DNA from: an uncultured Pseudobdellovibrionaceae bacterium
GTDB taxonomy: Bacteria > Bdellovibrionota > Bdellovibrionia > Bdellovibrionales > JAGQZY01
NCBI GenBank assembly: GCA_964588335.1
Contig: CAZPOV010000020.1
Span: 1-64,000, forward strand
DNA length: 64,000 bases
Direction: 5' to 3'
The notes beneath the pieces were generated by a model. It ran no database searches. It was not told the origin of the DNA and worked only from the letters and a program-made list of their open reading frames with translations. Within the stretch, counting starts at the first letter, position 1. Every line of letters begins with the position of its first letter. Shown one piece after another: positions 51,703-56,857 of this stretch. The position numbers and the translations under genes are program-made.

Positions 51703-52203
51703 ATGGATTTTTCCTACAAAACAAAAGCCGAAGGCTCCACCGTTGAACTGCATCTTATTGGCTACTTCGATGAATTTGCGAAACTCCCTTCTCATGAAGA
51801 CTTTTCCGAATACTCGAAAGTGATTATTGATTTTAGTGCTGTGGAGTTTATCAACTCCGGTGGAATAAAGGTTTGGCTGGGTTTTTCGGACAATATTGGC
51901 CTGATCGATACTCTCACCTCTGAAATGCGCGGTTGCCGACGTTTTGTTGTTGACCAGGTCAACATGATTGAAGGCTTTGTACCTAAAAATGGTAAAGTCA
52001 CTTCTGTTTACGTTCCTATTTTCTGTGACAAATGCGAAATGAGCTATGATGTTCATCAACCCATAGCCACTTTGGATAAAGACTTTCCCGATGTCTTCGA
52101 CAAAGTGAAGCCGGATAATTGCAAAGAGTTCCCCAAGTGTCGAAAATATTTCGAACTGGATATCGTTAAAAATAGTTACTTTCGATTTCTTGATAGCGAA
52201 TAA
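51703..52203 (+). CDS. STAS-domain protein with C-terminal four-Cys extension (paralogue A2)
   Basis: Aligns with A1 and A3: IIDFSAVEFINSGGIKVW, VNMIEGFVPKNGKVTSVYVPIFCDKC, CKEFPKC...YFRFL. This paralogy shows the + strand ORF is the real one, not the antisense 51697..52227. Confidence 0.7.
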   Translation: MDFSYKTKAEGSTVELHLIGYFDEFAKLPSHEDFSEYSKVIIDFSAVEFINSGGIKVWLGFSDNIGLIDTLTSEMRGCRRFVVDQVNMIEGFVPKNGKVTSVYVPIFCDKCEMSYDVHQPIATLDKDFPDVFDKVKPDNCKEFPKCRKYFELDIVKNSYFRFLDSE

Positions 52204-52411: not shown

Positions 52412-53398
52412 ATGGCTTTCGCAGTGAAATTACTTGGTGTCCGTGGCACTCTCCCCACTCCGTTGACTCCGTCACAACGAGACGACAAAATCAAACAAGC
52501 CATACAGGCCTTTATAGCGTCTCCTCAAGCCTCGGTTTTTGAAGTCCAAGAATTCATGAAAGACTACCCAGCACACCTTAGGGGCGGCTACGGAGGCCAT
52601 ACCTCCTGCGTCCAAATTTCCTCGAAAAGCGAGCAACTGATTATTGATTGCGGCACTGGTCTGAGCCAATTGGTTCCTGAACTCGCTAACACTGAATTCA
52701 AAGAAGGGAAAGGGCAAATCCATATCTTAATGACACACTTTCATTGGGATCACCTGATGGGACTTCTCACCTTTTTCCCCCTTTTTATCAAAGGCAATAA
52801 GATTCATTTCTATGCCGTTCAGCCTGAGCTTGCGCAAGTTATAAAAGCCATTTTTCAAAAGCCCTTCTTTCCTGTTCCGTTTGAAAGTCTGGGAGGGACT
52901 CTGTACTTCCATCAACTCAGTCCGCGTGAACCTCGACCTATCAATGGATTTAACATTACACCTTATCAATTGGACCATCCAGACCCTTGCTGGGGCTTTC
53001 GAGTGGAAAAAGATGGGGCCGTCTATTCCCACTGTGTTGACACAGAAGGGGTCAGACTGACTCCTGAAGAGCTGGGCCCAGACCTACCACTCTATCAGAA
53101 TGTCGACCTGATGCTATTTGACTCCCAATACACCATGCAAGAGATCACTGAAAAGGTGAACTGGGGTCACGCTACGGCCAACTTTGGAATTGATCTCGCC
53201 CTGACTCAAAATATACGTAAGATACTCTTTGCCCACCACGATCCTTTTGCCAGTGATTCTAAAATCAAAGAGACGAGCGTGCAGGTGCAGCACTACTATG
53301 AAAGCATGTGTCGAATGTACAAAAAGAACAATATACCCTTCAATGATGTGGAATGGGACATTGCTCGCGAAGGCATGAGAATTGAGGTCAAAGTATGA
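52412..53398 (+). CDS. MBL-fold metallo-hydrolase
   Basis: HxHxDH motif in ILMTHFHWDHLMG. Further ligand candidates are LDHPDP, CVDTEG and FAHHDP. The N-terminal LGVRGTLPTP...GGHTSCVQI pattern occurs in a widespread uncharacterised MBL subfamily. Confidence 0.9.
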   Translation: MAFAVKLLGVRGTLPTPLTPSQRDDKIKQAIQAFIASPQASVFEVQEFMKDYPAHLRGGYGGHTSCVQISSKSEQLIIDCGTGLSQLVPELANTEFKEGKGQIHILMTHFHWDHLMGLLTFFPLFIKGNKIHFYAVQPELAQVIKAIFQKPFFPVPFESLGGTLYFHQLSPREPRPINGFNITPYQLDHPDPCWGFRVEKDGAVYSHCVDTEGVRLTPEELGPDLPLYQNVDLMLFDSQYTMQEITEKVNWGHATANFGIDLALTQNIRKILFAHHDPFASDSKIKETSVQVQHYYESMCRMYKKNNIPFNDVEWDIAREGMRIEVKV

Positions 53399-53892
53399 GC
53401 GAATTCACAAGTAAATATGCGCCTGATCAAAACGAGGATATGGTTTTCTTTTTTTCGGGCATTATCGACAGCAGAGCTCAGTTGCCAAACTTGGACGATA
53501 GCGAAGATTCGATTATTCGCATCGACCTTGGCGACTTGAAAATGATGAACTCTGGCGGCATTCGAGAATGGATTTTATGGATAGAAAAATATAAAAACAA
53601 AAGCTTTTCTTTTTATCGGATTCCCACTTTCTTCACAAACCATCTGCAATTGGTCGAAAATTTGATACCGACAGACAGCAACATTGCTTCTTTCTTTGTG
53701 CCCTATTTCTGCCCTCAATGCGATACAGACAACGACCTTCTGTTTTTTCGCGATAAAGAATTCACCAATAGCGGTGAGGTGGTTTTATTAGTCAAAGCAC
53801 AATGTGCTGACTGCAAAGTTCCCATGGAACCGAGTATTCGCGCTGATCGGTTTTTTAGAGCTCTGAAACTGCGCCCACCCCAAGTTTGGTGA
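53395..53892 (+). CDS. STAS-domain protein with C-terminal four-Cys extension (paralogue A3)
   Basis: RIDLGDLKMMNSGGIREW, LQLVENLIPTDSNIASFFVPYFCPQC, CADC...RFFRAL. Its start overlaps the MBL stop (ATGA at 53395-53398). Confidence 0.7.
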   Translation: MSEFTSKYAPDQNEDMVFFFSGIIDSRAQLPNLDDSEDSIIRIDLGDLKMMNSGGIREWILWIEKYKNKSFSFYRIPTFFTNHLQLVENLIPTDSNIASFFVPYFCPQCDTDNDLLFFRDKEFTNSGEVVLLVKAQCADCKVPMEPSIRADRFFRALKLRPPQVW

Positions 53893-54717: not shown

Positions 54718-54966
54718 TTTTGTATTTTCTCCCCTCTGAAGGTCGTTAGTCTCATTATAGAAGATTAACGGCCCTTGAGCAAAAAATAGCCAGCTCCGCC
54801 CTAGACTGAGGCGAAATCAGGTAAATATCTGTTTTTTATGGACTTCCGAGGATTACAAAAGGTCTTTCGATTAATGTTTTATTAAAAATTCCATAGTATT
54901 TTGAAGCTTGCAAATAAACCTTTGCAAAGGTCCTAATGAAATCTCATCCATGTCTTATTTTTAGAC

Positions 54967-55977
54967 TTAATAGCGCCAACGGTTCGCCAAACCGACCAAG
55001 CTCAACATCACTGGAACTTCGATGAGCACACCCACCACAGTCGCTAACGAGGCACCGGAATTCAGTCCAAACAAAGATATGGCAACAGCCACCGCCAGTT
55101 CAAAGAAATTACTAGCACCAATCATCGAGCCAGGTGATAAAATCCTGTGGGGCAATCGCATTTTCCGGCCTAAAAACCAAGTGACGAAGAAGATCACGTA
55201 GGTCTGTAATATCAAAGGGATCGCAATTAAAATGATATCAAACGGCGAACCCAAAATCGTCGCGCCCTGAAAAGCAAAGATTAAAACTAAGGTGGATAAT
55301 AGTGCCACCATTGAAAGGGGCTTCAAGGTTGGTAAAAATCGCTCCTTAAACCAAACCTCACCGTATTTTAATATTAATAAGCGATTGGAAATCACTCCAG
55401 CAGCCAAGGGAATAACCACAAAAACCACCACTGAGTAAAATAAAGTGGAAAATGGAATGCGAATGTCAGTCATTCCCAACAGAAGCTGAACAATGGGAAC
55501 AAAGGCAAACAAAAGCACAAGGTCGTTCACCGAAACCTGCACCAATGTGTACTCGGGGTCACCCTGGGTCAAATAAGACCAGACAAAGACCATGGCCGTG
55601 CAAGGGGCCGCTCCTAAGAGGATGGCGCCCGCCATATACTGTTCGGCCATTTCGGGTGAAAGAATTGAGGCAAACAAATGGTCAAAGAAGATCCAAGCAA
55701 AAAATGCCATCGAAAAAGGCTTGATCAGCCAATTGATAAAAAGAGTCAGCCAAAGACCTTTTGGATTCTTACCAACATCCTTGATGGAACCAAAGTCAAT
55801 TTGCACCATCATCGGATAAATCATAAACCAAACCAAAACCGCCACTGGTAAATTGACAGTTCCGAGGTTCATTTGACTCAAGGGTTGAATGGAGTCACCG
55901 AAAATCGACCCCAGCAGTATCCCTAAAACAATACAGCCGGTCACCCAAACCGTTAAATATCTCTCAAAAAAACCCAC
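54967..55977 (-). CDS. acr3: Arsenite efflux transporter, ACR3 family
   Basis: The N-terminal FERYLTVWV and the ACR3 signature LGAAPCTAMVFVW are present, in a 10-TM layout. Confidence 0.95.
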   Translation of the reverse strand: MGFFERYLTVWVTGCIVLGILLGSIFGDSIQPLSQMNLGTVNLPVAVLVWFMIYPMMVQIDFGSIKDVGKNPKGLWLTLFINWLIKPFSMAFFAWIFFDHLFASILSPEMAEQYMAGAILLGAAPCTAMVFVWSYLTQGDPEYTLVQVSVNDLVLLFAFVPIVQLLLGMTDIRIPFSTLFYSVVVFVVIPLAAGVISNRLLILKYGEVWFKERFLPTLKPLSMVALLSTLVLIFAFQGATILGSPFDIILIAIPLILQTYVIFFVTWFLGRKMRLPHRILSPGSMIGASNFFELAVAVAISLFGLNSGASLATVVGVLIEVPVMLSLVGLANRWRY

Positions 55978-55989
55978 ACGTCTCCCCGA

Positions 55990-56412
55990 TCAGTCTTCGA
56001 TGTATTTTTCTATATTAACCACAAAATTTTTAATCTGATCGCGCACGCGCCGATACTCCTGTAGGACGCTCTCCTCGTCGGTCAATTTCTTGGTCAAACC
56101 AGGCGGATCGTCGAATCCGACATGAATGATACGGCTTCCGGGAAATGTCGGACAGGTTTGGTCAGCATCGGAGCAGACCGTAAAAACCACATCCAAAGGT
56201 TCATTACGAAATTCAGCGATTGTTTTTGATCGATGTTGGGAGATATCGATACCGACCTCGGCCATCACTTGAACCGCCCTCGGATTCAAACCATGGGCAT
56301 GAGTGCCTGCTGAGTGAAACCGGTATGATGTCCCCAGCAAAGATTTTCCCCACCCTTCCGCGATTTGCGAACGGCAGGAATTACCAGTACAAAGAAAAAG
56401 GATATTTTTCAT
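55990..56412 (-). CDS. arsC: Arsenate reductase, thioredoxin-coupled LMW-PTP type
   Basis: Colinear with S. aureus pI258 ArsC: LCTGNSCRSQIAEGWGK (P-loop, Cys10), VCSDADQTCP (Cys82/Cys89), GFDDP. Confidence 0.95.
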   Translation of the reverse strand: MKNILFLCTGNSCRSQIAEGWGKSLLGTSYRFHSAGTHAHGLNPRAVQVMAEVGIDISQHRSKTIAEFRNEPLDVVFTVCSDADQTCPTFPGSRIIHVGFDDPPGLTKKLTDEESVLQEYRRVRDQIKNFVVNIEKYIED

Positions 56413-56819
56413 GAGTTCTCCAAAAAGTTATCTAGAATGGGACAGTCACTTAAAAGCACACTCTCTTCAACGCAGCAACTGGCGATGCTTTTTAAAGACT
56501 TCTTGATTCTTTTCAGGTCCTTAATTTTAGCTTCTACTTCTTGCATCTTTTGACTGGTTTTGCTGAGGACATCACTGCATCTTGCCTGGCTTTTTATTCT
56601 AATATTCAGCAATTCTTTGGCCTCTTTTAAAGTAAAACCCAGCTCTTGGCAGCGCTTGATAAAGCGGATGCGCTGAATATCAGATTCGGGATATTGACGA
56701 AAAGCTCCGGTTTTTCGAGGCTGCTTTAATAATCCCCGTCTCTCGTAAAAGCGGATGGTTTCGACATTGACGGAGGCCTGTTTAGCGAGTTTTCCTATGG
56801 TCAATTTCTGTGAGTTCAT
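56409..56819 (-). CDS. MerR-family regulator closely resembling Hg(II)-MerR (all three metal-ligand Cys positions conserved)
   Basis: [26 protein letters not shown] matches Tn21/Tn501 MerR [26 protein letters not shown] (recalled from memory). Cys residues in ARCSDV, ASCCVE and SDCPIL correspond to MerR C82, C117 and C126. The stop overlaps the arsC start by 4 nt. Confidence 0.9.
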   Translation of the reverse strand: [136 protein letters not shown]

Positions 56820-56825
56820 AAGACC

Positions 56826-56857
56826 ACTTTAAACTCCGTACCATGGTACGGAGTCAA
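56826..56857 (-). promoter_or_regulatory. MerR-type promoter/operator: -35 TTGACT, a 22-bp perfect dyad, a -10-like TTAAAGT, and a 19-20-bp spacer
   Basis: The minus strand reads TTGACTCCGTACCATGGTACGGAGTTTAAAGT. The palindrome actccgtaccatggtacggagt spans 56833-56854. Its half-sites TCCGTAC/GTACGGA are those of the Tn501/Tn21 mer operator as I recall it (TTGACTCCGTACATGAGTACGGAAGTAAGGT). Confidence 0.75.

Follow-up and report, generated by a model that had tools for sequence, protein, structure and literature searches.

A MerR-family regulator heading an arsC-acr3 operon, a probable arsenic-sensing switch, in an uncultured Pseudobdellovibrionaceae bacterium

Among the closest known counterparts of the regulator considered here are the mercury sensors of the MerR family. 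MerR of Tn21/Tn501 controls merTPCAD, its gene is divergently oriented, the spacer of its promoter measures 19 bp, and the protein carries a C-x8-C loop. In Gram-positive mer operons such as that of Bacillus megaterium MB1/RC607, the regulator gene comes first in the operon that its product activates, and the locus described below likewise has its regulator gene in first position. The Bacillus MerR likewise controls mer genes and has the C-x8-C loop, and Hg(II) is its demonstrated effector, whereas the effector of the regulator described here is one that we infer. PbrR691 and CadR (PDB 5gpe and 6jni), also with Cys at the three equivalent positions, control Pb/Cd efflux ATPases. The ArsR/SmtB repressors (R773 ArsR, CgArsR, AfArsR) have the same genomic role as the present regulator and stand before acr3-arsC in sister genomes, but they have an unrelated fold and are winged-helix repressors leaving the DNA on binding. 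ArsR senses As(III) via three cysteine thiolates (PMC11672702). According to a 2024 review, the metals sensed by MerR proteins are Hg, Cd, Pb, Co, Zn, Fe, Ni, Au, and Cu, with As absent from the list, and all arsenic-responsive regulators named there belong to the ArsR/SmtB family (PMC11672702). No account of an ars regulator or arsenic sensor of the MerR type turned up in the literature searched, in which most subscription journals are not represented.

In this study, we analyzed a 64,000-nt stretch of DNA (the window) from an uncultured Pseudobdellovibrionaceae bacterium with a genome of the predatory-bacterium type. Reading of the ORFs revealed a three-gene arsenic-resistance operon on the minus strand in the order merR-like, arsC, and acr3 (Table 1). 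The merR-like stop codon and the arsC start codon overlap by 4 nt (ATGA), and a gap of 12 nt separates arsC from acr3, which is preceded by the Shine-Dalgarno sequence GGGGAGA; gene order and both junctions agree with the initial annotation of this DNA. ArsC matched the Pfam family LMWPc, while its best NCBIfam match, TIGR02691 (arsC_pI258_fam), scored 142.9 bits and thus below the cut-off of 174.3. The protein has a CX5R loop from C8 to R14 as well as C80 and C87; we take C8, C80, and C87 to be the equivalents of C10, C82, and C89 of the pI258 enzyme. Acr3 matched TIGR00832 with 395.6 bits, above the cut-off of 282.8, and by direct reading contains the motif GAAPCTAM with C126. The hairpin directly downstream of acr3 was not flagged by the terminator scan. 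As to signs of a genomic island, neither a tRNA nor a GC anomaly was found at the locus. We consider it likely that the merR-like gene encodes a dedicated transcriptional regulator of this merR-arsC-acr3 operon, acting by the mechanism proposed below.

Table 1. Genes and regulatory elements of the arsenic-resistance operon (positions within the 64,000-nt window).
Feature	Position	Strand	Description
merR-like	56409-56819	-	136 aa; MerR-family metalloregulator; ars-linked clade, group A (CC-x9-C loop)
arsC	55990-56412	-	140 aa; predicted thioredoxin-coupled LMW-PTP-type arsenate reductase
acr3	54967-55977	-	336 aa; GTG start; Acr3 arsenite efflux permease
Candidate weak intrinsic terminator	54905-54935	-	ACCTTTGCAAAGGT followed by TTATTTG, directly 3' of acr3; direct reading; low confidence
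-35 hexamer TTGACT	56852-56857	-	direct reading; the operator dyad begins with its final T
Operator, perfect inverted repeat TCCGTAC-CATG-GTACGGA	56835-56852	.	TCCGTACCATGGTACGGA; within the promoter spacer
-10 hexamer TAAAGT	56826-56831	-	direct reading; 20 bp from the -35 hexamer (spacer 56832-56851)

The regulator contains the domains MerR_1 (PF13411; 75.5 bits) and MerR-DNA-bind (PF09278; 64.1 bits), both above cut-off, and no ArsR/SmtB domain of the HTH_5 or HTH_20 type. Its AlphaFold model (pLDDT 84.5) has the MerR topology a1-a2-b-b-a3-a4-a5(81-115)-loop-a6, that is, the plan of the heavy-metal-responsive MerR subgroup with a winged helix-turn-helix and a long dimerization helix. Foldseek comparisons with PbrR, CadR, MerR, and CueR gave TM scores of 0.72-0.81, PbrR691 and CadR being the top structural matches (0.79-0.80). 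In sequence, these two are less similar to the regulator than the Hg-responsive MerRs; the best solved relatives were the Bacillus megaterium protein (PDB 4ua1; E 3e-29) and the Tn21/Tn501 protein (PDB 5crl; 2e-26), the latter with about 40% identity and the same fold. A DNA-binding region like that of Tn21/Tn501 MerR had been noted before, and the recognition-helix stretch of the helix-turn-helix, ending in GLL, is in fact identical to Tn501 MerR. The designation as a Hg-type MerR holds insofar as TIGR02051, the Hg-MerR equivalog, is the best NCBIfam match, but with 137.1 bits the score stays below the cut-off of 150.85; NF010315 scored 102.1 against a cut-off of 261.

Cys residues are located at positions 57, 81, 115, 116, and 126. 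As had been claimed, all three Hg-ligand positions are occupied by Cys: C81, C116, and C126 align with C82, C117, and C126 of Tn501 MerR and with C79, C114, and C123 of Bacillus MerR. The site is nevertheless not the plain Hg-type one, since, compared with Hg-MerRs, the loop contains one additional residue (C-x9-C versus C-x8-C) and C115 has been gained, forming a CC doublet. CC-x9-C is the loop of the ars-linked clade introduced below, whereas nearly all sampled mer-linked MerRs and Tn21 MerR have C-x8-C. C131, present in most members of group A of this clade, is missing from the regulator of the window, and group B members have an extra C-terminal Cys. Because PbrR and CadR also use Cys there, the three positions alone leave the specificity unfixed, and a response to Hg(II) may still occur, as both the operator and the three aligned Cys match those of a Hg sensor. 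One alternative explanation is that the protein is still a sensor of Hg, or of soft metals such as Hg, Cd, and Pb in general, with arsenic not being a ligand and induction of arsC-acr3 a side benefit. The best family model, the best solved relatives, and the retained ligand positions agree with such a sensor; the score below the equivalog cut-off, the lengthened loop, and the gained Cys do not.

In the promoter, TTGACT-N20-TAAAGT holds the dyad TCCGTAC-N4-GTACGGA, which abuts the -35 hexamer. An over-long spacer of 19-20 bp is the criterion of MerR-type promoters (PMC11672702); here, as is characteristic of the MerR heavy-metal subgroup, a sigma-70 promoter with such a spacer contains the operator dyad. 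The sigma-70 scan accepts only spacers of 16-18 bp and gave no report of this promoter. The Tn21 operator-promoter (plasmid R100, between merR and merT) reads TTGACTCCGTACATGAGTACGGAAGTAAGGT. The -35 hexamer and both half-sites, TCCGTAC and GTACGGA around a 4-bp center, are identical in the window and in Tn21 merO, a further point in favor of a Hg sensor. The mer-type operator half-sites named in the initial annotation are confirmed; the spacer measures 20 bp instead of 19 bp, and the regulator gene is the co-directional first gene and not divergent as in Tn21/Tn501. With up to two mismatches allowed, the dyad occurs once in the window, as an exact copy, with 0.07 sites expected. Only 6 nt (56820-56825), without a Shine-Dalgarno sequence, separate the -10 hexamer from the merR-like ATG; therefore, the mRNA is probably leaderless, with a predicted transcription start at the A of this ATG (56819). 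Conservation of these elements was analyzed in the 46 ars-linked loci described below. The operator is kept in 43 of them and TTGACT or a one-off variant in nearly all, while TAnnnT at N20 together with ATG at N6 was found in 36 of the 46, with a distance of 5-8 nt in seven more.

The absence of arsR, merT, and merA, observed before for the window, extends to the whole genome, which is 99% complete. No HTH_5 or HTH_20 match of the ArsR/SmtB type was obtained genome-wide, while all 14 control genomes gave matches. Neither merT nor arsB or arsH was found in the whole genome, and no merA match exceeded the cut-off, the best matches being dihydrolipoyl dehydrogenase-type enzymes. A search for mer genes with the same operator had been suggested: scanning all 3.67 Mb of the genome with at most one mismatch gave no second copy of the dyad, and the only MerC-family gene is located on another contig and has no operator. 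As the regulator is the only MerR_1 protein of the genome, no ArsR/SmtB protein was found, and acr3 and the operator each occur once, no other known arsenic regulator is in sight.

Relatives were collected by genome searches and a metagenome scan; distant proteobacterial MerRs from a single-protein contig search were left out of the comparison. In total, 46 MerR genes were found at the head of arsenic modules, in metagenomes as well as in two classes of the phylum. They comprise that of the window, those of 10 further genomes within the order, 29 loci from elsewhere in the phylum, and six on metagenome contigs. A 30th locus from the rest of the phylum (L212) is also ars-linked, its ORF as called being too short for the tree. 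Five module types are headed by these genes, namely ArsC-Acr3(-ArsH), Acr3-ArsH-ArsC-ArsO, ArsI/MIP/ArsC, ArsC-MIP-ArsH, and GAPDH-ArsJ, with Acr3, ArsH, ArsO, ArsI/CadI, ArsJ, and the ArsJ-associated GAPDH scoring above their NCBIfam cut-offs. A maximum-likelihood tree placed all 46 ars-linked proteins in one clade (UFBoot 90, SH-aLRT 90; 142 usable columns, with moderate supports and a bootstrap not fully converged). In group A, the subclade of the window, 33 of 33 members are ars-linked (92/95); in group B, 11 of 13 are (99/94), and the remaining two end at contig edges. Within this broad clade, one nested subgroup (11 rows) heads a MerC-like/thioredoxin cassette and not ars genes. In the phylogeny and neighborhood analysis that had been proposed, the mer-linked MerRs of the order (with MerT-MerP, or MerC-like with MerA) are separate: they fall into other clades, have 38-45% identity to the regulator of the window, and use different operators, TCTGTAG..CTACAGA or CTATAG... 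Genome G007 contains both an ars-linked and a mer-linked MerR.

These data also bear on the explanation that the locus arose recently by fusion or deletion, as the remnant of a mer-ars island with a functionally orphaned regulator. That decay of such loci does occur is evident from G049, a genome of the same genus, where a decayed copy has its helix-turn-helix deleted and its operator degraded. The intact copies, however, share the conserved promoter, the 4-nt overlap, and a purifying-selection-like conservation across 46 loci in two classes. Fragments of mer genes near the operons of relatives had been named as a point that would speak for a remnant; beside the 46 ars-linked members, neither mer genes nor mer fragments were found. 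The comparative data contradict this explanation, and we regard it as extremely improbable; judged from the sequences compared, the arrangement is not a mer-ars fusion remnant. Since dozens of related genomes show the same merR-ars pairing, it probably represents an arsenic-sensing switch.

A survey of acr3 in 201 genomes of the order yielded 34 loci. ArsR accompanies 17 of these, mostly divergent and immediately upstream, and four of the 17 come from the same genus as the window; nine are MerR-headed, one has a MerR remnant, and seven lie at contig edges or are unclear. No ArsR directly adjoins the MerR-headed operons, and no MerR is present where ArsR precedes acr3; at two MerR-headed loci (L056 and L058) a weak ArsR-like ORF lies a few genes off. 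Together, the 46 conserved loci, the clade of their own, and the lack of an adjoining ArsR support the proposal that a three-Cys MerR of the Hg type was recruited as regulator of an ars operon. They also weaken the explanation of a persisting Hg or soft-metal sensor. None of the 46 members has a mer gene beside it, the true mer-linked MerRs of the order use a different operator even within G007, the five arsenic-specific modules, including GAPDH-ArsJ and ArsI, would be ill-suited to control by Hg, and close relatives without the regulator have ArsR before acr3 instead. Overall, we consider a sensor for which arsenic is not the ligand improbable.

As a further alternative, the regulator might sense not the metalloid itself but the thiol or redox stress that arsenic causes, for example via disulfides among the clustered Cys. 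Candidates for such disulfides are the vicinal CC pair and, in group B, the additional C-terminal Cys, and SoxR and NmlR are MerR-family members that sense redox or carbonyl stress (PMC11672702). The nearest sequence relatives, however, belong to the metal-binding MerR/ZntR/CueR/CadR subgroup and not to SoxR/NmlR, and the regulon comprises arsenic genes only, without general redox genes. We consider this explanation unlikely, to about the same degree as control by Hg.

For an arsenic-sensing switch, the following mechanism is proposed. The regulator would bind as a homodimer to the dyad within the 20-bp spacer of its own promoter. Without inducer, expression would be low because the -35 and -10 hexamers are out of phase. 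Candidate effectors are As(III), Sb(III), and organoarsenicals. The thiolates would bind a trivalent arsenical, with As(III) either imported or made by ArsC from As(V), and possibly Sb(III) as well. One subunit would probably contribute C81, with which its dimerization helix starts, as a ligand, and the other subunit its loop residues C115/C116 and C126. The liganded dimer would underwind the operator, realign the hexamers, and activate transcription as in MerR, CueR, and ZntR, a predicted promoter remodeling that differs from the release of DNA by ArsR. The product would be the probably leaderless merR-arsC-acr3 mRNA, with ArsC reducing arsenate and Acr3 exporting arsenite. With the regulator gene in first position, induction would lead to positive feedback, as it does in the mer operons of Gram-positive bacteria. 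For the clade as a whole, we lean, with somewhat less confidence than for the regulatory role itself, toward direct binding of As(III), and perhaps of Sb(III) or, in group B, methylarsenite, by a rebuilt S3/S4 Cys site and activation by DNA distortion.

If true, the metalloid As would be added to the known MerR effectors, as the first activator-type arsenic switch, and an unrelated regulator would have taken the place of ArsR within one genus. The alternation of ArsR-headed and MerR-headed acr3 loci in this genus is a clear example, found in nature, of non-orthologous regulator displacement. With an As(III) sensor of the MerR type, the chemistry of the family would come to include a trigonal-pyramidal metalloid, and such a sensor would show how a one-residue loop insertion and one Cys might retune a Hg site. 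It would also supply arsenic biosensors with an activator-type part of low background and steep response; in biosensors based on ArsR repressors, cross-talk with Sb is a known problem.

Several further candidates were not counted as ars-linked members. Two metagenome loci outside the clade (L100 and L153) have an ars gene upstream or divergent, which is ambiguous, and were set aside, and the ars label of L133 was dropped as its downstream side is lost at the contig end. The best plasmid match, with 50% identity, was a MerR on plasmid p2 of Pseudorhizobium banfieldiae NT-26, a strain that oxidizes arsenite. With a C-x8-C loop, no dyad, and MFS/ArsR neighbors, this protein is placed outside the ars clade.

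The merR-like gene, arsC, and acr3 are packed tightly on the minus strand within positions 54967–56857 (see table). The 4-nt merR-arsC overlap and the 12-nt gap between arsC and acr3 are as described in the initial annotation; the stop codon of merR shares the sequence ATGA with the arsC start codon, and the gap contains GGGGAGA. Acr3 scored well over its NCBIfam cut-off (395.6 vs. 282.8). The top NCBIfam match of ArsC was the pI258 thioredoxin-type family with 142.9, under the cut-off of 174.3; ArsC retains Cys 8, 80, and 87 along with the CX5R loop.

Coordinates of the operon genes and the operator
Feature	Position	Strand	Description
operator dyad	56835-56852		TCCGTAC-N4-GTACGGA, perfect inverted repeat
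merR-like	56409-56819	-	MerR-family protein, 136 aa; first gene of operon
arsC	55990-56412	-	LMW-PTP-type ArsC, 140 aa; second gene
acr3	54967-55977	-	Acr3, 336 aa, GTG start; third gene

The initial annotation had noted that arsR, merA, merT, and merP are absent from the window; for arsR, merT, and merA (above the cut-off), this extends to the whole genome assembly, which is 99% complete. It contains no HTH_5/HTH_20 (ArsR/SmtB) protein; all 14 control genomes have one. Neither a second MerR_1 protein nor merT, arsB, or arsH was found in the genome, and no merA above the cut-off, the top matches being FAD oxidoreductase or dihydrolipoyl dehydrogenase types. As the genome also has a single acr3, the merR-arsC-acr3 operon is therefore its only recognisable arsenic determinant and the first gene of the operon the only candidate regulator. 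The single MerC-family gene of the genome is located on another contig (C2:187719-188066; fetched locus L192:1381-2043), encodes a His-rich C-terminal tail, and adjoins neither a MerR gene nor a mer-type operator.

A survey of 201 genomes of the order yielded 34 acr3 loci, nine of them headed by MerR. ArsR (HTH_5) accompanied acr3 at 17 loci, among them loci in four genomes congeneric with that of the window, and was mostly divergent and immediately upstream; seven loci were at contig ends or ambiguous, and one had a MerR remnant. Both regulators directly adjoined acr3 at none of the 34 loci; at two MerR-headed loci (L056, L058), a weak ArsR-like ORF lies a few genes off. The remnant, found in a genome of the same genus (G049), is a decayed copy ahead of arsC-acr3 (L182:2845-3081) of which only residues 84–135 are left, comprising the coiled coil and the CC-x9-C loop; a deletion has removed the HTH, and degradation has left the operator as CCGTACTATGGCACGG.

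The closest database homologues bear the names Halobacteriovorax, Bacteriovorax, and Bdellovibrionales. When MerR homologues in the 201 genomes were sorted by context, those with approximately 44–64% identity to the window protein headed arsenic genes, those with 38–45% headed MerT-MerP or MerC-like genes with MerA, and those with 35–41% adjoined P-type ATPases. In one family of another class of the phylum, such a homologue (E ≤ 1e-30) occurred in 46 of 100 genomes; 30 of 40 loci fetched from the rest of the phylum were ars-linked, and six metagenome contigs gave further cases. The downstream modules comprised ArsC-Acr3 with or without ArsH, Acr3-ArsH-ArsC-ArsO, ArsI with MIP or Acr3 and ArsC, MIP-ArsC or ArsC-MIP-ArsH, and ArsJ-associated GAPDH with ArsJ, the key gene assignments exceeding NCBIfam cut-offs. 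Some genomes (G423, G433) have two ars-type MerR paralogues with a different arsenic module behind each. Both have MerR-ArsC-Acr3-ArsH, and their second ars-type MerR heads ArsJ-associated GAPDH and ArsJ (L211:2330-4979 and L212; both above NCBIfam cut-offs); G423 has an additional third MerR with a MerC-like/thioredoxin cassette.

The phylogeny with gene neighbourhoods that had been proposed separated an ars-linked clade from the order's mer-linked MerRs. In this maximum-likelihood tree (121 context-labelled MerRs, 142 columns, bootstrap without full convergence), one clade held all 46 ars-linked rows (support 90/90), and the ars label needed 5 changes vs. 37 with shuffled labels. Group A, including the window protein, was ars-linked in all 33 rows (92/95), and group B in 11 of 13 (99/94), with contig ends truncating the other two. 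Most economically, the regulator would be a MerR-type activator, the effector of which is probably a trivalent arsenical. That the arrangement is merely a fusion remnant is contradicted by its conservation, and we consider this extremely improbable.

The regulator contains MerR_1 and MerR-DNA-bind domains; its best family is Hg-MerR TIGR02051 (137.1 bits, below the cut-off of 150.85), and the relatives of known structure that match it best are Bacillus MerR (4ua1, E 3e-29) and Tn501 MerR (5crl, 2e-26). Its AlphaFold model has MerR topology (mean pLDDT 84.5), with Foldseek TM values of 0.72–0.81 against PbrR, CadR, MerR, and CueR. Sensing of Hg or soft metals, to which this kinship might point, appears unlikely. 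The cysteines are C57, C81, C115, C116, and C126; in the model, C81 starts the long helix 81–115, C115 and C116 lie at its end, and C126 is directly ahead of the last helix. Nearly all sampled mer-linked MerRs and Tn21 MerR have a C-x8-C loop, whereas the ars clade has C-x9-C plus one added Cys, with C81 retained throughout. The pattern is CC-x9-C-P-[IV]-L-[DE]-(C)-F in group A and C-x9/10-(C)C, CF, C-terminal C in group B; C131, found in most group A members, is missing from the window protein. A protein with these cysteines might also respond to thiol stress, which we likewise regard as improbable. No MerR-type arsenic regulator was described in the literature searched, coverage of which was incomplete; a 2024 Chem Rev review gives As under ArsR only (PMC11672702).

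The promoter of the presumed arsenical-responsive activator (minus strand, 56857-56817) consists of TTGACT, CCGTACCATGGTACGGAGTT, TAAAGT, ggtctt, and ATG in that order. The mer-type half-sites claimed initially were checked against the plasmid R100 record, in which the merR-merT intergenic stretch with the Tn21 operator-promoter reads TTGACTCCGTACATGAGTACGGAAGTAAGGT; the −35 and both half-sites are thus identical. The spacer is 20 bp vs. 19 in Tn21, and an over-long spacer of 19–20 bp is a hallmark of MerR-type activation (PMC11672702). The dyad occurs once in the window (0.07 expected) and once in the 3.67-Mb genome with at most one mismatch. Ars-linked loci have the operator (T)CCGTAC-N4-GTACGG(A), and the dyads of the order's mer-linked loci are TCTGTAG..CTACAGA or of the CTATAG type. 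Genome G007 contains one operator of either kind, so that at the DNA level the ars and mer regulons look insulated from each other. The exact layout −35, N20, −10, N6, ATG was found in 36 of 46 ars-linked loci, all lacking a Shine-Dalgarno sequence (56817-56831 for the window's own locus), which suggests a leaderless mRNA of the regulator; in seven further loci the gap from −10 to ATG is 5–8 nt.

The window regulator is 56–68% identical to those from the family in the other class, which are nearer to it than most homologues of its own order, suggesting horizontal transfer of the cassette. Neither a tRNA nor a GC anomaly was found at the window locus.

A subgroup nested between groups A and B heads a MerC-like membrane protein with a fused DF-domain, followed by a mini-thioredoxin (L054:6042-7444; L222-L226, L228, L229, L232), with no adjoining merA; many metagenome loci (e.g., L094, L120, L126) have this cassette. 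In its MerRs closest to the ars clade, the loop is C-x9-C with only one Cys, and most metagenome copies retain C-x8-C. Just downstream of the neighbour of the operon in the window, two paralogous Cys-rich ORFs of approximately 165 aa each (51703-52203 and 53395-53892) flank a metallo-beta-lactamase-fold-like ORF (52412-53398).
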